Source: Sulfurimonas sp.
GTDB taxonomy: Bacteria > Campylobacterota > Campylobacteria > Campylobacterales > Sulfurimonadaceae
Reading direction: 5' to 3'
Assembly: GCF_019429335.1 (NCBI RefSeq)
Contig: NZ_JAHYJB010000002.1
Coordinates: 62,343-126,342, forward strand
Length of the DNA stretch: 64,000 bases
In this document: piece by piece, positions 18,625-60,498 of the stretch
How the letters are laid out: each line of letters starts with the position of its first letter
Position numbering within the stretch: the stretch's first letter is position 1
The notes under the pieces: generated by a model
Databases searched by the model: none
What the model saw: only the letters and a program-made list of their open reading frames with translations
What the model was told of the DNA's origin: nothing
Translations under genes and position numbers: made by a program

Positions 18625-18633
18625 TGATATAAT
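18625..18633 (+). promoter_or_regulatory. Extended -10 promoter, probably driving kdsA-ribH-nusB
   Basis: TG-A-TATAAT perfect match. Confidence 0.55.
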
Positions 18634-18699
18634 CGCTTCCTATTTTTAATAACTGGCATTGCGCACTTTTTCATAAAAATGTGTAAAAATATATTTTAG

Positions 18700-18797
18700 T
18701 TCTCGAAAAACAAAGTTTTTCGTAGCTTTAGGGGGTTGTAGGGACTTTAGTCCCTGCCGCCTAAACGGACGTGTTCGTTTAGGTGCGTAACATCAGT
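18700..18797 (+). repeat. Structured three-hairpin interspersed element, copy 1 (in the kdsA leader)
   Basis: Near-identical to 20648..20744; core cgtagctttagggggttgtagggac...gtccctgcc...cggacg.gttcgttt...tgcgtaacatcagt. Confidence 0.85.
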
Positions 18798-18812
18798 TAA
18801 AAAGGCAAACAG

Positions 18813-19604
18813 ATGAAATTACTCGCCGGACCTTGCGTCATAGAGAGCGAAGAGAATATTTTTAAAATCGCTAAAGCTTTAGAGATTTATCAAAATGACA
18901 GTTCCATTGACTTTTATTTTAAATCCTCTTTTGATAAAGCCAATCGTACATCACTCGATAGTTTTCGCGGATTGGGCATAGAAGAGGGACTTAGAATTTT
19001 AGAAAAAGTCAAAAACGATTTTGGCTACAAAGTTGTAACGGATGTACATGAGTCGCATCAGGTGGCTCAAGTTGCCGAAGTTGTCGATATGCTTCAAATC
19101 CCAGCATTTTTATGTCGTCAAACAGACCTTTTGGTTGCATGTGCAAAAACTACAAAAGAGGTAAATATCAAAAAAGGGCAGTTTATAAATCCGCCAGATA
19201 TGCGCTACTCTATAGCAAAAGTGCTTAAAACCCGTGGCTGTGATGAGGTGAGTTATGAGGCTTCAAAAAAACACGGAGTTTATCTCTGTGAGAGAGGAAG
19301 CTCATTTGGCTACGGAAACATCGTCGTGGATATGCGCGCACTTGTTATCATGAGAGAGTTTGCACCGACTATTTTTGATGCAACGCACTCCGTTCAAGCT
19401 CCGGGTGCACTTGGCGGAAAAACTGGCGGAGACAGAACAATGGTTCCTTATTTGGCAAGTGCAGCGGCAGCAGTAGGAGTGGACGGTTTCTTTTTTGAGA
19501 CGCACTTTGACCCAAGTATCGCACTTAGTGACGGACCAAATATGATAAAATTAGACGAGCTGGAAGCTCTAATAAATAAAATTAAAAAAATACGGGAGAT
19601 ATAG
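18813..19604 (+). CDS. kdsA: KDO 8-phosphate synthase
   Basis: [42 protein letters not shown]. Confidence 0.97.
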
Positions 19605-19605
19605 A

Positions 19606-20070
19606 ATGAATTTAATCGAAGGCAAATTAAAAGTAGTAAATGGCAAGAAGATTGCTATAGTAAGTACGAGATGGAATCACTTTATTGTTGATAGACTTGT
19701 TGAGGGCGCAAAGGATGCATTCGCTCGTCATGGCGGAGATGATGCTGATTTGACACATGTTTTGGTTCCGGGAGCATTTGAACTTCCAATGATAATTGAC
19801 CGGCTTCTGGCTAGCAAAAAATATGACGCAATCTGTGCACTTGGCGCTGTTATCCGCGGAGCAACTCCTCACTTTGACTATGTTTCGGCCGAGGCAACAA
19901 AAGGGATAGCGACAATGAGCCTAAAGTATCAAAAACCTGTATCCTTCGGGCTTTTGACAACCGACACAATCGAGCAGGCAATCGAGAGAGCGGGCACAAA
20001 AGCAGGAAACAAAGGTTTTGAAGCGATGACGGTTGTTGTCGAGATGTTAGACCTTTATGAGAACTTATAA
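19606..20070 (+). CDS. ribH: 6,7-dimethyl-8-ribityllumazine synthase
   Basis: [31 protein letters not shown]. Confidence 0.97.
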
Positions 20071-20072
20071 AA

Positions 20073-20180
20073 GACACTAGTGTCGCGGGCTTCCTGCCGA
20101 AGGAAACCTAGCGTTAGCGTAGGTAGCGGAATTACTTCCGATACCGTGATAAAATAAATGAAGGGAACCCTTCATTTTTA
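20073..20180. repeat. Multi-hairpin (cloverleaf-like) element in the ribH-nusB spacer
   Basis: Palindrome gacactagtgtc; outer stem tcgcgg/ccgtga enclosing ttcct/aggaa, accta/taggt and cggaa/ttccg arms; then aaatgaaggg-aa-cccttcattt. Confidence 0.55.
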
Positions 20181-20199
20181 CGAAATAAAATAAGGAAAA

Positions 20200-20601
20200 A
20201 TGATGGCCACTAGACATCAAGCCAGAATGGCAGTTGTAAGCCTGTTGTACGCATTTGATTTGGGCAACGGAAACATTGCAGAGCATACGGATGAGATTTT
20301 AGAAGAGAAGAAGATTCGCAACAAGCAAAAAGATTTCGCACTTACGCTCTATGAGGGTGTTATGAAAAATATAGAGCCGGTTGACGTGGCAATAGTTAAA
20401 CATCTGAAAGATTGGGATTTTGAGAGACTTGGAGCTATAGAAAGAGCAACGCTCAGACTTGCAACTTATGAGATACTTTACGGCGAACTAGACTCTGCGG
20501 TGGTTATAAATGAAGCGGTTGAGATAACAAAAGCATTTGGAACAGAACAATCTCCTAAGTTTATAAACGGTGTTCTTGACGCAATTTCAAAAGATAAATA
20601 A
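20200..20601 (+). CDS. nusB: Transcription antitermination factor NusB
   Basis: ATRHQAR, IERATLRLATYE, VINEAVEITKAFG, FINGVLD. Confidence 0.96.
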   Translation: MMATRHQARMAVVSLLYAFDLGNGNIAEHTDEILEEKKIRNKQKDFALTLYEGVMKNIEPVDVAIVKHLKDWDFERLGAIERATLRLATYEILYGELDSAVVINEAVEITKAFGTEQSPKFINGVLDAISKDK

Positions 20602-20647
20602 CTGACCTTACGCACTTTTGCAAAAAAGTTCGTAAATACCTCTAATT

Positions 20648-20744
20648 TTCTCGAAAAGTACCCTTTTCGTAGCTTTAGGGGGTTGTAGGGACATTTGTCC
20701 CTGCCACTAAAACGGACGAGTTCGTTTTAGTGCGTAACATCAGT
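20648..20744 (+). repeat. Structured three-hairpin interspersed element, copy 2 (downstream of nusB)
   Basis: Direct-orientation homolog of 18700..18797, with compensatory stem changes and altered loops. Confidence 0.85.
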
Positions 20745-20824
20745 AAATAATTCTACCTCCTCAGAGGTAAGCTTCAGTGCCTAAGCGGCTAGCGTAGCAA
20801 ATTTGGGCTTAGCTCAAATTGCGT

Positions 20825-22469
20825 TCAAAAATAGAGTCTAATAGTAAAAACGGCTCCCTCTTGGGAGTTTTTTACACTTAGTTTCCCTCCCATTTTATCC
20901 TCAATAATCGTTTTTGCCAGATAGAGCCCGATGCCCGTTCCCTTGTCTTTTTTTGTGCTAAAGTAGGGGTCCAAATATCTTCTCTTTTAGTTCATCTTCT
21001 ATACCCAGAGCATTGTCGCAAACTTCAATAATGATGCTGCCGTTCTCTTCTCTTATGTTGATGTTGATTTTGCCATCTTGCACAGCTCTCTCCTCTATAG
21101 CGTCTTTGGCGTTGACGATGAGATTGAGCAGGACTTGAGAAAACTCATTTTTATTTGCAAAGAGAGCAGTTTTTTGCGAAGAGTTGATGGATAGTTTGAT
21201 GTTTGAGTGTCTTATGGGTTCACCGATGATATTTAAAACACTTTGCAGTGCATCTTCTATAAAAAACTCGGTTTTACTTGCATCATTTTTATAAAAATCT
21301 CTAAAGTTATCGACGGTGTTTGACATAAACTCTATTTGAGAAAGTGCGCTTTGCATGGAGTCGTTAAACATCTTATCGCTCATTTTTTCTTTTGTTTTAA
21401 ATGCTTTAAGGTTTTGAAGTATAAGAGAGACTCTTGTGAGCGGTTGCCTCCATTGATGGGCAATGTTTGCCACCATCTCTCCGAGTTCTGCAAGTTTGCT
21501 TTGGTTTTGAAGCAGTGTGTCGAGTCTTTGGGCTTGAAGTGCTACAAGATCAAATATATTTTTGAGTGCTTTTGTAAAGATAACGGTAAAGAGAAGTGCC
21601 ATAATGACGGCAAAAAGAAGGATAACGCCTATCATTTTATTGTTATAGTTTTTTGTTTTTTGCAGCGTTGCTTCATTTTCAACTAATAGCATATCTACTT
21701 TGTGCACCCCTACAAAAAGCGGCTGCAAAAGATGTTTTTTCTCTTTTGCTTCATCTTTTATGTCAGCTTTTGTCCACTCAAGCTCTTTTTCATGGTGCTT
21801 GATAAAGTAGCCCTCTTCGTTTACCAAAGAGATATCATAAAGTGTGGAGCTTATTATATTTTGTAAAAAGGCATCCATAAAAACATTTATGATCAGAATT
21901 CCTTTAAATTTTTCTTTAATGTAGACAGGCGTAGCAAACCGAATCACTGATTTATGCGGAATTTCAACCTTTTCATGTTCTACATTGAGGTCGATATTTG
22001 AGATAAAAACCTCATTTTGCTCCATTTTGGAGATCTCTTGAAAATAGTCTCTCTGTGCCTTGTCTTGCAGACTTTGCGTTTTTTTGATTTTTTGCGACTC
22101 TCTGTCTCTCTCAAACCTCAAAAGCTCCAAACCATTTTTATCTATATAACGCATCTGCATGTAATCTTTGTTCGCTTCCATAAGCGTTAAAAAGAGCAGA
22201 TCTACAAAATAGTTCTCTTTTGCTTTAAACGTAAAATCTAAAAACTGCTCATTTTGCGAAACGGCGAGTAGCGCATCTTTTTTCATCTTTATATGTGCAT
22301 CAAACTTCTCTTTTTTCTCACCGCTTTGAAGCTTTGCCTCTTTTAAAAACTGCTGTGTTTGCTGCTCTTTTGAAAAATAGAGATGCACAACGGCGATAGA
22401 GAGGATTAGGATAAGCGTAAAGATGATGTAGGAGAAAAAAAGCTTGATACCAAATTTTAGTTTATTCAT
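20825..22469 (-). pseudogene. Sensor histidine kinase (Cache-like periplasmic domain, HisKA, HATPase) with a +1 frameshift near the 3' end
   Basis: H-box NIAHQWRQPL; N-box QVLLNLIVNAKDA. The ORF stops at IFGPLL*. Removing one G at 20971-20972 restores [50 protein letters not shown] ending at 20825. Confidence 0.85.
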
Positions 22470-38311: not shown

Positions 38312-39201
38312 AACGAATAATCCTCCATTAAATCAGAATTTACACACACTTGAATTTTTACTATTGAACCGACAGCTTTAAACTGGAACGTACTTACGTC
38401 ATTCATAAGCACTACTTTTTTTGTGTTGGCATCACTATATTTTCCACCATTCCATGGCTGATAGTCATAGTAGAGCATAAGCGTGCCTGTGCTTGTCGAT
38501 GCATTGTAGTCAGTTATACCGACGGCGTACGCGGTCCATGCAAGCTGGTAGTACTCATATATATTTGCGCCGCTAAAATCAGTTGCCGTACTAGATTCAA
38601 ATTGAGTAGGTTCACCAGCAACGCTCTTTATTGGGTGCATAACGCTTGTGTTATGGTCGCTCAAAGTGCCACCGCCTATGGTCCAGCCGTATCCGTTTTG
38701 AATATCGCTGTCAGAGCCTACGAAGTAGAGAGCTGCATCATTAATGCCGCTACCACCGTTTGAGAGTACTCCTATTAGTGTATTTAGCGCTCCTGTGTCC
38801 GTTCCCGGAGAGGTTAATACAGCAGAAGAGGATGACTTGATGTCTATTATCCCGCTCCAGTGCGGTAAATAAACAGCTCCAGTGGGAGTATTGCCCCTAA
38901 AGCCGTCTACATCAGCTCCGACCCACTCCAAAATAGGGGCAGTTGCCGCCGTATAGCCTGGAAGTCCGCTAAATGTTCCATCAAGCTCTCTTGCTATGAC
39001 AGAGTCTTTTATGCGGTACTGCAGTCTTGAAGCTATAGATTCTACAGCCGCCGCGCTGTTTGCCTGCAGAGCGTTGTTTACACTTGAGAATATAAAGTTT
39101 TTATATGCTTGAGAAAGAAGTTCGACACCGTATTTGCTCAGAATTCCGATAACTACTATAACAAAGATGAGCTCTAAGAGTGTAAAGGCAGATTTACGCA
39201 T
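38287..39201 (-). CDS. Prepilin-type minor pilin (MshO/PilW-like)
   Basis: MRKSAFTLLELIFVIVVIG N-terminal methylation motif. Confidence 0.82.
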   Translation of the reverse strand: MRKSAFTLLELIFVIVVIGILSKYGVELLSQAYKNFIFSSVNNALQANSAAAVESIASRLQYRIKDSVIARELDGTFSGLPGYTAATAPILEWVGADVDGFRGNTPTGAVYLPHWSGIIDIKSSSSAVLTSPGTDTGALNTLIGVLSNGGSGINDAALYFVGSDSDIQNGYGWTIGGGTLSDHNTSVMHPIKSVAGEPTQFESSTATDFSGANIYEYYQLAWTAYAVGITDYNASTSTGTLMLYYDYQPWNGGKYSDANTKKVVLMNDVSTFQFKAVGSIVKIQVCVNSDLMEDYSLCKEKTIF

Positions 39202-39842
39202 CAAAATCTCCTCTTATAAAAATCTATCTCGCCGATGTTGGTGCTATAAACACTTAGCGCAGTAATATTATTGTCGTCAGAGTCAGTAACCGTAACAGTA
39301 ATTTTTTTAATATTATTGTCAGTCGCCCCTGTTTCATCAACATTTGAAATCGAAACAATACTGTAGTAATTGTTTTTATACCCTGTGGCATTTTTTGTAG
39401 CATCCGTAAAGATAAGTTCGCTTCCATGAGTAGCATCGTTTAAAGTTGGAAAAACTCCGCCTGAGGTGTTTGCAGGAATGTTTATTGCACTGCTATCCAA
39501 ACATCTTCTATGGTATGGCTGATTAACATGTCCCAGTCTTAGTCTGTAGTCGGGGTCAGAACTATTGTTTTCACATACACCGCCGATGTCTATTACTCTC
39601 TCTAAGTGACTGAGATTATAGTCATTCATAGAGTATGCATCCCAATAGTAAGATGTCGCTCCCATTAACTCTGCAGAAGCCGCAAAGATAGCCTCCTGAA
39701 CTATGTTCTCCTCGATGCCCTTTGAGGTAATCTGGGCCATCATAGGCAGAGTTATTACGGCAATGGAGATAACGACAATTGCAAATATGAGCTCTATCAT
39801 GGTAAAAGCAAATCTACCAAGAGCAGTTTTTCTATTTACCAC
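39201..39842 (-). CDS. Prepilin-type minor pilin (MshD/PilV-like)
   Basis: RFAFTMIELIFAIVVI motif; C-terminal KKITVTVT strand. Confidence 0.8.
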   Translation of the reverse strand: MVNRKTALGRFAFTMIELIFAIVVISIAVITLPMMAQITSKGIEENIVQEAIFAASAELMGATSYYWDAYSMNDYNLSHLERVIDIGGVCENNSSDPDYRLRLGHVNQPYHRRCLDSSAINIPANTSGGVFPTLNDATHGSELIFTDATKNATGYKNNYYSIVSISNVDETGATDNNIKKITVTVTDSDDNNITALSVYSTNIGEIDFYKRRF

Positions 39843-42800
39843 ATTATTCTCCTATTGGTTGTCGTTCCGTCTGGAGTTTTTGTAGTCGTGTCCGTATCAT
39901 GCTCCCCTGTCCAATCACCTGCGTTATCAAACTCAACTTGGAACTCATTTCTAGTAGCAAAAGGGTCGCTTTCGTTGTAGATGAGCCATGGAGATGCTTC
40001 ATTTTGCATAGTCGTTTTGTATGGGTAGCCTTTTGAACCGTTATATCTTAAAGTTGTTGTTTGTCGTATCGGGTTGGTATTTGTCACTGATGCTGTTTCT
40101 GTTACATGGGGTGTAGCAACCTTTTCACTAACAGCACCCACTATTCCATCATTTGGAAGCACATGCGCTTCATTTATATACCACCTTACGTCATCTGTTC
40201 TCATAAGATTTGGGCTAAATCCGTTAAGTAGAGTTTTGTCGCAGCCAGTTCCAAAACAGTAAGACTCAAAGTAGATGTTTGCATTTTTAACACAAGGAGA
40301 AGTAGTACAACTATATCTCTGTCTTGAAGCATGTGTGCGACCGTAAGCAAATGTAGCATTACTGTCAAGGGAATTATTGCCGGTAACGCTATCATTATCT
40401 TCAGCATCTATAGCTGTAACTACAACCATAAACGGGTTTACAACTTTTGTTAAATTTCTGTCAAAATTTATTTTGTAGTTGAAGTTCGCCGTTCCGTTTG
40501 TGTCGTTGCTGTCAAAATGTGTACTTAAAAATGGTATAACATATGGTGGTAGAGTTGTGTTTAAGTCTATCGAGCCATTAGTATCACCGTCATTATCATA
40601 ATGGTACCAAAGTAACTCTGTTAGTGAATTTGTAGGATTGATAACGATAGGCGCTAAAGCAAGTGTTATATTCCCATCCTTTGCATAACACTCCTGAGTA
40701 TAGTTTGAGGTAATGTTGTTATCTGCTTTTTGCGCTGAAACATTTAAGTCTAGCGATGCCGAAATATCACGGCTTAGAGTTGTGTTGTGCTCTTCAAAAT
40801 TTGAGAGGTATGTAAAACCGTTCGAACCGTTTGTTAGACCTCCTACTACCTCAAAATGGTCAGGGATTACTTTTATCTGTTGTGTATAAGGAGTTATCAG
40901 TCTATCTGCAGGATCTAGTGTGTCATCTGTATCTACAAGCGCAAATTCGTAACCCACTCTCTCTGCTATTGTCACATTAAAGTCGCCTACATTGTGAAGT
41001 GTGTAATCATCTGTGACTGCTCCATTTGTAAAATTAACAGATGGAGAGAAGTTGATGGAAGATTCTTGACATGTTTTAGAGCTATCGCTGATATTGACAT
41101 CGACAAAGAAAGAGTCATCCTCTACTTCATTATAGTTATTGGTCGGAGCACCTACGGAATTATCAGCTCTAAATGTAATAGTTTTAGGGTTACCCGCCGT
41201 AAAAATTTCATTAGGGGCTATTGTGGCATTGAAATCGTTTGGTCTGATGGCGAAGTCATCACTACTACATGCAGTTCCCGCATAAAAAGTACACATAAAA
41301 CAACCTAATGGACTATTAAACAATCCAGTTCCTGCCCCGTTGTTCTGTGATAAGCAAGGCTTACCGTATGTGTCGTTGATTGCACATCTCTCATAGGCAG
41401 TTTGACCGTATGCATCAACATACTGTACTGCACTATTTACACACTGACCAAGACCTTCTAAGTTTCCGGTAGTAGAACTCACTTCAACGCAGTTTTGAGC
41501 ATCTTCGTTTAATTTGCTTGTATCAACAATTATCATCTCTATTTTGGCATTTTTTGAAGCATTTGCAGGGATGATGACATCTTTTGTTTGAGAATAATCA
41601 GATGCTCCTGAGTCTTTAATGGTAAAAATAGCTTGCAGATTGGTAGCGGGATCAATGATTTGTTGCAGTAAAGATGAATTTGCAGACGGACATCCTCCTG
41701 TAGCATCTAAATCATTAAGCACCGGAATTGCAAACCATAGTTTTTTATCTACATCCCCACTTGAATTGTTATCATAATCTGCATTTACGCCAAAATCATT
41801 TAAGTAAACTGCCGTAAGCGGCGTAGTTTCAGATGCAATTTTGGTTTTAATAAACTTTAAACCTAAAGAACTGGTATCTGTACTTGCATTGTAAGCATTG
41901 CTTAAGGCAGCAGTATTAATGTTCGTATCAATAAAGTCACCATTGCCTAAGCCCTCTTCAATGTAACCTCCGCCTCCACCGCAAGAGCTAATCTTTTGAG
42001 CATAGTTCAAGCCATCTTTTGTATAAGAACCATAGAGAATGATATCGTCGAAATCACCGGAGGAAGACCATGTGTCTGAATCTGTTACAGTTTGATTTGA
42101 GTCTCCTGCAAAAGAGGGCCAAATATACTCATAGCCGCTATTATGATCGGGAAATCCGCTGATAGATCTGATAGATGGACCGTTGCAAGAGTCGCCGCCG
42201 GAACATGTTCCACTATTTGCATTTGAGTCATATATTTTAAAAACACTTACATTGCTTAGAGCATCACCATCTCTATTTACAATAGTCACTTGTGCATCAC
42301 AATCATGCGGTGTTTTGTTCGTTGCTGAGTAAAAAGCTCCTGCAAGTATACATTTTCCAGTGTTAATATTGTCTCCTGTTGAGCCGGCATAACAAAGTCC
42401 GTACTCACTATAAACAGAACCTATCGCCTCGCCATCGCTTATGGAGGCACCGTAAGCATTGTCTAAGAGAAGTTTAAACTTACCGCTTGCACCTGCTTTG
42501 ATGGTGACAGTAATATCTGCACTTATTTGCCCGGCAGGAACCATAAGCGTATTGTCAACAGCTATGTAGTCGACTCCAGCAACAGCAGTGTCGTTAAGAG
42601 TTTTGTAGTGTATGTAAGAGTCTGTTTCTATCTCTGAACTTAATGTTCCACTGAGAGTAACATTGAAAGTCATGATGGCGTCTTGTGTAGGTGACTGCAT
42701 GGAAGCATCAGCAACACTTACTGTTGGAACGGTAACATCATTGCCGCTACAAGGGTTTAGTATAACACGATAAAACTCTCCATTTTTGTAATATTCTGCA

Positions 42801-60300: not shown

Positions 60301-60498
60301 GTAGTCTGGGTAGTTCGATATATCGCCTATGAGGGTTCTACACATGAATACAGCGAATTAGTAGGACTTGCGTGTGTTGGTGTTGTCGTTTGAGATACGT
60401 TAACTCTGTCAAGACAATGTCGCCGATAGCAAGCTCTCTCTTCGCCCAAATACGGCTTTTAGAACCAAGCCAAACGCGAGACGGCTATCTGGGCTACA
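60301..60498 (+). ncRNA. ssrS: Probable 6S RNA
   Basis: About 200 nt non-coding; the ends pair (gtagtctgggtagt 60301-60314 with gctatctgggctac 60484-60497); TGTATAAT -10 just upstream. 6S RNA lies next to purD in Helicobacter and Campylobacter. Confidence 0.75.

Follow-up and report, generated by a model that had tools for sequence, protein, structure and literature searches.

Two structured repeats at the kdsA-ribH-nusB locus of a Sulfurimonas genome are probable copies of a miniature inverted-repeat transposable element with IS701-type ends

Introduction

The genes kdsA, ribH and nusB of Sulfurimonas sp. lie together within a stretch of 64,000 nucleotides of contig NZ_JAHYJB010000002.1 (this whole stretch is referred to here as the window), and a copy of a structured repeat is found at either end of the gene cluster. 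Copy 1 is situated in the 5' leader of kdsA and copy 2 between nusB and a convergent sensor-kinase gene. A previous description made from the sequence alone (the sequence-only reading) presented the two copies as twin elements of 98 nt whose hairpins carry compensatory base changes, did not recognize them as members of a known family, and regarded the pair as bracketing the operon. In this study, the extent of the repeat, its distribution, its termini and its folded interior were analyzed computationally. Together the results lead us to conclude that the two elements are very probably copies of a gene-less miniature inverted-repeat transposable element (MITE) mobilized by a transposase of the IS701 family of insertion sequences (IS).

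Results

Architecture of the two copies

The sequence agrees with the direct-orientation copies that had been placed at 18700-18797 and 20648-20744, but the repeat is longer than the 98 nt proposed. Similarity between the copies begins at 18648 and 20597, and the true left end lies about 47 nt to the left of the one first proposed, giving elements of 144 and 142 nt (Table 1). A repeat finder identified the two ends of copy 2 as mutual inverted repeats. The element consists of a left terminal inverted repeat (TIR; CTGACCTTACGCAC), an overlapping hairpin 0, hairpin 1, an invariant linker, hairpin 2, hairpin 3 and a right TIR (GTGCGTAACATCAG), in that order. The TIRs are 14 nt in length and complementary at 12 of the 14 positions. 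With a length of about 143 bp, the element has no coding capacity and is made of hairpins and linkers.

The finer features of the sequence-only reading were all found as described, namely three hairpins, the invariant linker TAGCTTTAGGGGGTTGT and the invariant tail CGTAACATCAG. The compensatory swaps were likewise verified, both in hairpin 1 (A-T to G-C) and in hairpin 3 (two double swaps). Folded as RNA, copy 1 reaches -51 kcal/mol (z -6.05) and copy 2 reaches -53.4 kcal/mol (z -6.88). The GCACTTT heptamers seen at 18663 and 20612 are part of the left TIR and hairpin 0 (TTACGCACTTTT).

Table 1. Coordinates of the element copies, their parts and neighboring features within the window.
Feature	Position	Strand	Remarks
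Extended -10 box TGATATAAT, predicted kdsA promoter	18625..18633	+	Conserved in alignment with G005, G008 and G017
Copy 1, left target-site duplication TTAATAA	18646..18652	.	6/7 identical to right one
MITE copy 1, kdsA 5' leader	18653..18796	+	144 nt; 156.2 bits with covariance model R1
Copy 1, left TIR	18653..18666
Copy 1, hairpin 0	18661..18684
Copy 1, hairpin 1	18704..18722
Copy 1, linker	18723..18739
Copy 1, hairpin 2	18740..18755
Copy 1, hairpin 3	18758..18785
Copy 1, right TIR	18783..18796
Copy 1, right target-site duplication TTAAAAA	18797..18803	.	Sequence comparison and empty site in relatives
kdsA (3-deoxy-8-phosphooctulonate synthase)	18813..19604	+	NF003543, 381.9 bits
ribH (lumazine synthase)	19606..20070	+	TIGR00114, 187.8 bits
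Family B dispersed repeat, unrelated to MITE, between ribH and nusB	20071..20198	.	Without counterpart in G005, G008 and G017
nusB	20203..20601	+	TIGR01951, 138.5 bits
Copy 2, left target-site duplication TAAATAA	20595..20601	.	Identical to 20744-20750; ends in the nusB stop codon
MITE copy 2, between convergent nusB and sensor-kinase gene	20602..20743	+	142 nt; 154.1 bits with covariance model R1
Copy 2, left TIR	20602..20615
Copy 2, hairpin 1	20652..20669
Copy 2, linker	20670..20686
Copy 2, hairpin 2	20687..20702
Copy 2, hairpin 3	20705..20732
Copy 2, right TIR	20730..20743
Copy 2, right target-site duplication TAAATAA	20744..20750	.	Identical to left one
Family C small dispersed repeat, right after copy 2	20762..20831	.	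Missing in G008

A dispersed family in the genome

A BLAST search of the element against its own genome (2.06 Mb in 73 contigs) returned 46 matches on both strands, and an iterated nhmmer search of the same genome converged at 42 copies. The repeat is thus not a pair, as it had appeared within the window, but a family of about 42 dispersed copies. Given the number of copies and the fold z-scores of -6.0 and -6.9, the observation at the locus is far beyond chance. About one third of the genome copies are full length, while the others are shortened, mainly at the left, or contain short nested inserts. Almost all copies are intergenic, and a predicted open reading frame (ORF) of at least 90 amino acids is overlapped by 7 of the 42 hits. 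With respect to the flanking ORFs, 16 copies are in sense and 13 in antisense between co-directional ORFs, 11 lie between convergent ORFs and 2 between divergent ORFs. These counts indicate that no transcribed strand is preferred and that divergent promoter regions are avoided.

Four genome copies (C33:57459-57624, C2:62877-63022, C28:37521-37668 and C12:15446-15569) contain an extra hairpin-forming insert of 33 nt at one exact point, between GTAGCTTT and AGGGGG, and a copy from genome G084 (L196) has an insert of 24 nt at the same point after GTAGCTTT. Additionally, an 18-nt segment, AAACGAAGTTTCTTTAGA, is found repeatedly, within hairpin 3 or following hairpin 1, and in both orientations. 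Seven contig ends (C2, C9, C67, C22, C25, C55 and C56) have in common a sequence of at least 90 nt (…AAGTAAATCAGCCAAAAAACTGTAAAATTACAGGCAATGGCTAAAATCAG…), a multi-copy repeat that broke the assembly and is unrelated to the MITE. The contig-end repeat AATGGCTAAAATCAGTT, which is TIR-like at 13 of 17 positions, was considered and dropped, since it lies inside a longer unrelated repeat.

Termini and target sites

For the analysis of target-site duplications, elements were collected by both termini, which yielded 111 distinct TIR-bounded elements. Flanking repeats of 7 bp were perfect in 47 of these and contained one mismatch in a further 20, and no match was obtained for flanking repeats of other lengths. 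The consensus of the duplicated heptamer, TTANTAA, is a palindrome. As would follow from a target of this sequence, many copies directly adjoin a TAA stop codon, on either strand, or stand 15-25 nt upstream of a start codon.

Several variants of the termini were observed. Copies with CTGATG at both ends exist, and among the external copies that keep the core of the interior, the right TIR is recognizable about twice as often as the left (80 versus 44 of 123). One element, L187 (G096:C3:20593-20746), has the same two TIRs and a 7-bp flank (6/7) around a wholly different interior of 154 nt, which demonstrates that the TIR ends can carry other cargo.

Empty sites in close relatives

The closest relatives identified by a genome search were G005 and G008, with about 91% identity over kdsA-ribH, and G017, with 83-87%. 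All three genomes have the same kdsA-ribH-nusB order, at 83-91% identity, and both copies of the element are missing from them. At the copy 1 site, alignment with these relatives leaves 151 extra bases in the present genome, a difference that corresponds exactly to the element plus the 7-bp duplication. The empty site in the relatives reads CCTATTTTT(C/T)A(A/T)AAGGCAAAC. At the copy 2 site in G008, a few bases lead from the nusB stop codon to the downstream gene. Judging from these alignments, both insertions postdate the split from the nearest sequenced relatives.

The reciprocal comparison gave a similar picture. Of 15 copies taken from G008, about 8 are at sites that are uninterrupted in the present genome, and 3-4 are in intergenic space that is also occupied in the present genome. 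The copies at C67:16090-16223 and G008:C3:60828-60971 (L202) share an intergenic site, yet they are in opposite orientation and belong to different subfamilies, so that this site was hit twice independently. Because sites are hit repeatedly and independently, shared positions are unreliable as markers of common descent.

Candidate partner insertion sequences

The genome contains two DDE_Tnp_1 genes. A resident IS at C33:593-1795 is 1203 bp long and has TIRs of 31 nt beginning CTGATGTTACGA, of which 11 nt are identical to the right end of the MITE. It encodes an intact transposase of 355 amino acids that belongs to the IS701 family (NF049921, 264.8 bits, with a curated cut-off of 250 bits). A second IS, of 1102 bp, was found in genome G073 (L175:1486-2587). 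Its ends, CTGACCTTACGCACC and GGTGCGTAAGGTCAG, are exactly the left TIR of the MITE over 14 nt, and it is flanked by a perfect 7-bp duplication, TTAGTAA. This IS is filled nearly end to end by a transposase of 350 amino acids (NF049921, IS701 family, 342.5 bits) that is 37% identical to the resident one. In G081, too, the ends of an IS are the same as the MITE TIR. Since the left end of the usual MITE copy is of the G073 type and its right end is of the C33 type, the usual copy is a hybrid of the two end flavors.

The candidate partner transposase matches PF01609 (DDE_Tnp_1) with 44 bits, and relatives of the C33 transposase were detected in 10 of 151 genomes of the family, those of G073 and G081 being intact. 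The parent IS was located via a transposase search; TIR pairs 250-6000 bp apart, sought as a parent IS in 118 loci, were chance pairs only. An ISAs1-family transposase gene (C65:~38897-39979; NF033564, 137.4 bits) and a Y1_Tnp gene in a 261-amino acid frame at a contig end (C70:27130-27462) are also present in the genome and are unlinked to the MITE.

Covariation and conservation of the interior

RNAalifold applied to a MAFFT alignment (A1) mis-registers the variants of hairpin 1, and a hand-set structure and a covariance model were used instead. Alignment A2 comprises 17 MAFFT-aligned copies with the hand-set structure, and the covariance model was built from it. Alignment A3 comprises 105 copies from about 100 loci that were aligned by the covariance model, and as such it is biased in favor of that model. 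In A2, 94.5% of cells are paired, and 9 double-change pairs were counted versus 3.6 in shuffled and 1-3 in slid controls. In A3, 92.2% of cells are paired versus 74.5% in shuffled and 39-51% in slid controls, and 641 double-change cells were counted versus 165 in shuffles. The margin for covariation is large despite the fitting of A3 to the model. Hairpin 1 is 95.7% paired in A3 with 58 distinct stem sequences, and hairpin 3 is 96.9% paired with 75. The earlier proposal that the stems covary while the loops are free holds on both sets of copies.

In contrast to this turnover, the linker (GTAGCTTTAGGGGGTTGT) and hairpin 2 (AGGGAC-loop-GTCCCT) are nearly invariant. An exact match to the core 24-mer was the basis on which external loci L031-L148 had been collected, hence the invariance of the core among them is built in. 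In the copies of the present genome, core column identity is at least 90-95%, and a search by termini alone gave 15 elements, of which 14 contain the core and one has a different interior of 154 nt. These two less biased samples agree with the invariance of the core.

Local alignment of the interior to three IS copies gave scores no better than those of shuffles, and the interior is therefore not a deleted IS. The plus strand folds better than the minus strand (-51/-53 versus -34/-49 kcal/mol), and G-U pairs outnumber A-C mismatches in hairpin 2 (79 versus 9) and in hairpin 3 (119 versus 18), mostly at two inherited positions. Consensus scans of the element for an outward promoter or terminator remained at chance level. 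An Rfam search at the gathering score and at E up to 10 found no family, the best match being at chance level (16.2 bits versus 58.6).

Old copies decay in the core, as exemplified by the C53 copy of the present genome in comparison with G008. Three shared sites were compared as potential orthologous copies. One of them is the independent insertion in opposite orientation described above, and in the other two the core changes at about the rate of the flanks and is no better kept than the flanking genes. This decay of old copies argues against a host function at each site. Genomes with a single copy were considered as carriers of a source gene for the interior; this candidate was rejected, as the five copies are at five different loci and all are decayed MITEs.

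Distribution

Of 141 genomes sampled from the family, 67, representing 12 of 23 genera, contain the element according to the covariance model, with counts per genome that reach at least 22. In an order-wide sample, the element was found in 25 of 141 genomes and 9 of 26 families. The core 24-mer occurs in contigs labeled Sulfurimonas, Sulfuricurvum, Sulfurovum and Sulfurospirillum. In the literature searched, no description of a MITE from Sulfurimonas, Sulfuricurvum or Sulfurovum was found.

Neighboring genes and other repeats

The predicted extended -10 box TGATATAAT stands about 35 nt upstream of the kdsA ATG in G005, G008 and G017. Copy 1 lies between this conserved box and the kdsA ribosome-binding site, that is, inside the leader as first described, and copy 2, which had been assigned to the nusB 3' region, directly abuts the nusB stop codon. 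The box is the putative kdsA promoter. On the basis of its conservation in the relatives, the start of the kdsA transcript is probably near 18640, so that copy 1 would be transcribed in sense and would extend a kdsA leader of about 30 nt to one of about 175 nt.

Two further small dispersed repeats have entered this 2.4-kb stretch. Family B separates ribH from nusB, whereas in G005, G008 and G017 only about 5 nt lie between the ribH stop codon and the nusB ATG. It is about 128 nt long, contains the palindromes GACACTAGTGTC and GAAGGGAACCCTTC, and has about 8 partial copies in the present genome and matches in most relatives of the genus. Family C, of about 70 nt, has about 11 partial copies elsewhere in the present genome and has the word TAGCGTAG in common with family B. 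Since these two repeats also landed here, the apparent bracketing of the operon points to an insertion-tolerant region rather than a designed pair. The notion of a bracketing pair therefore gives way to independent recent insertions of a dispersed element, both missing from the nearest relatives. Elsewhere in the window, positions 60361-60494 match the purD RNA motif (RF01069) with 66.6 bits, against a gathering score of 41.

Discussion

The repeat at the kdsA-ribH-nusB locus is a short non-coding element with TIRs, a target duplication of fixed length, dispersed copies and empty sites, and ISs with the same termini exist. These are the properties of a MITE. The sequence-only reading had held that the motif belongs to no known family, and this stands as far as Rfam is concerned; it does not stand for the termini, which match the ends of IS701-family ISs.

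We propose that the MITE is mobilized in trans by a DDE transposase, encoded by an IS of the IS701 family that has the same ends. Insertion would occur into AT-rich palindromic 7-bp targets (TTANTAA) that are duplicated on entry, and such a target would often include a TAA stop codon or fall within the A/T-rich sequence that precedes a ribosome-binding site. In a compact genome only intergenic insertions would survive, with the result that copies come to lie flush against the ends of genes. According to this model, copy 1 landed between the kdsA promoter and ribosome-binding site and copy 2 on the nusB stop codon. The interior does not derive from the parent IS. It consists of three to four local hairpins with a near-invariant linker and an invariant hairpin 2, and compensatory changes have preserved the hairpins in hundreds of copies from many genera.

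Several observations weigh against this model. The acting transposase is named only from shared termini and duplication length, and no relative of it was found in G008, a genome with at least 19 copies of the MITE. The MITE itself is present in 67 of 141 genomes of the family versus 10 of 151 for relatives of the transposase. The resident C33 IS is without a target duplication, and its ends match those of the MITE over the first 11 nt only. Among copies with the core, retention of the right end is about twice as frequent as that of the left. In addition, a duplication of 7 bp does not conform to the 4-5 bp that are usual for the IS701 family. Duplications of 4-9 bp have been reported for ISGka1 and ISGka2 of Geobacillus (PMC8024623), and therefore 4-5 bp is not strictly defining for the family; a duplication of 7 bp is unusual, yet inside the reported range. 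Finally, a DDE transposase needs the ends only, so that the MITE model leaves the conserved interior unexplained.

The conservation of the interior exceeds what a selfish element would be expected to require. The turnover of stem sequences beside a fixed linker, the inserts at a fixed point, the better folding of the plus strand and the excess of G-U pairs all argue for a constraint beyond drift. At the same time, the occurrence of copies in both orientations, the decay of the core at the rate of the flanks and the single-copy remnants argue against a service to each neighboring gene. We infer that the structure is maintained by selection on those lineages of the element that are still transposing, where it may be required either for transposition or for tolerance of the element in transcripts.

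An extension of the MITE model, which adds to it rather than replaces it, is that the MITE carries, as cargo, an interior with a function of its own as structured RNA or single-stranded DNA. Such a module would form a junction of several stems linked by conserved segments, and it may act as a processing or stability signal in transcripts or as an enhancer of its own transposition. The pattern is that of a folded RNA, with variable stems, independent compensatory changes and near-invariant single-stranded linkers. Furthermore, the same core is present in nearly all elements chosen by termini alone, the extra hairpins after GTAGCTTT leave the rest undisturbed, the plus strand is the better folded one, G-U exceeds A-C in hairpins 2 and 3, and the interior is unrelated to the parent IS. 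However, copies occur in sense and antisense to neighboring genes in similar numbers (16 versus 13), so that neither strand is consistently the transcribed one, the core decays in copies that are old and fixed, the G-U excess derives mainly from two inherited positions, Rfam offers no match even at the permissive threshold, and part of the core invariance is due to the retrieval of L031-L148 with the core 24-mer. On balance we regard the cargo model as rather doubtful. In its specific form, hairpin 1, GUAGCUUUAGGGGGUUGU, hairpin 2 and hairpin 3 would be one functional folded module that has spread through the Campylobacterales on IS701-type ends, and we regard this version as equally doubtful. 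Such a module may be an RNA element that shapes the processing or stability of the host transcripts it has entered, or it may be a structure needed by the transposition machinery to join the ends of a hard-to-bend DNA of 143 bp.

Alternatively, the compensatory changes could be a mutational by-product. Template switching corrects quasi-palindromes in bacteria, and no selection on structure would then be required. The hairpins are indeed DNA palindromes in many copies, and their stems are short (8-12 bp). This mechanism leaves two features unaccounted for, namely the near-invariance of the linker and hairpin 2 beside a full turnover of the stems of hairpins 1 and 3, and the persistence of fixed G-U positions, which it would be expected to convert to Watson-Crick pairs. 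As the sole explanation it is therefore improbable, while such correction of palindromes may have contributed in a non-selective way.

A REP-type or IS200/IS605-type origin, in which an HUH/RAYT transposase would process the element in the form of single-stranded DNA, finds some support in the GTAG that precedes hairpin 2, as it does in REP sequences, and in the Y1_Tnp gene at C70. Such an origin is extremely unlikely, since the element has TIRs and 7-bp duplications, which are not made by tyrosine HUH transposases. The GTAGGGAC...GTCCCT hairpin was found 13 times inside MITE copies and never outside them. Moreover, Y1_Tnp genes are present in 62 of 151 genomes of the family and are not co-distributed with the element. 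The element is present without Y1_Tnp in G008, G164 and G090. In one genus, 11 of 16 genomes contain Y1_Tnp and none of the 16 contains the element, and the element is missing from all of 30 Y1_Tnp loci. The HUH/RAYT link suggested in the sequence-only reading thus did not materialize, and the candidate partner is a DDE transposase. There is next to no likelihood that the two copies are an operon-specific cis-regulatory pair, a leader and a 3' element controlling kdsA-ribH-nusB, as their sense placement in the kdsA leader and after nusB might suggest, because the three nearest relatives keep the operon without either element and about 40 other copies stand beside unrelated genes in both orientations.

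The MITE model, which we favor, has consequences for annotation: the motif should not be read as a regulator of kdsA or nusB, as it is mobile DNA. Mobile DNA has recently made the predicted kdsA leader 151 nt longer, and a second copy sits on the nusB stop codon. The family is apparently undescribed, occurs in at least nine families of the Campylobacterales, and has a clear IS701-family parent and a palindromic target of 7 bp. Elements of this kind are ordinary, but the folded interior is unusually well preserved. Whether structured cargo helps short elements to transpose is a question that can be tested.

Bacterial MITEs that are mobilized in trans by a resident IS include RUP of Streptococcus pneumoniae, with IS630-Spn1, as well as Nezha and Chunjie. 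Like the Sulfurimonas element, these are small and non-coding, have TIRs identical to those of an autonomous IS, produce a duplication of fixed length, and occur in tens of intergenic copies with insertion polymorphism between close relatives. The Sulfurimonas element differs from them in its IS701-family partner and 7-bp duplication, and in an interior that is unrelated to the IS, strongly conserved and structured instead of being an internally deleted IS.

The candidate partners resemble the IS701 family (NF049921; ISGka1/ISGka2) in their scores of 342.5 and 264.8 versus the 250 bits required, and in being DDE enzymes with short TIRs and AT-rich targets. They depart from it in a duplication that is consistently 7 bp (TTANTAA) rather than the usual 4-5 bp (4-9 bp in Geobacillus; PMC8024623). 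The candidate partner ISs are short (1.1-1.2 kb), and the MITE is far more widespread than they are.

Similarities also exist to the Correia/NEMIS repeats of Neisseria and to ERIC and BOX, which are intergenic repeats of about 100-150 bp with inverted ends. Those repeats are co-transcribed with their neighbors and form stable RNA folds, as is predicted for the Sulfurimonas element. BOX additionally has a modular make-up with optional segments, as seen here. Correia elements, by comparison, duplicate TA and have no known transposase, and none of these repeats is related in sequence to the Sulfurimonas MITE. Finally, the fold sets the Sulfurimonas element apart from Correia, ERIC and BOX, as conserved linkers connect three to four local hairpins in place of one long hairpin.

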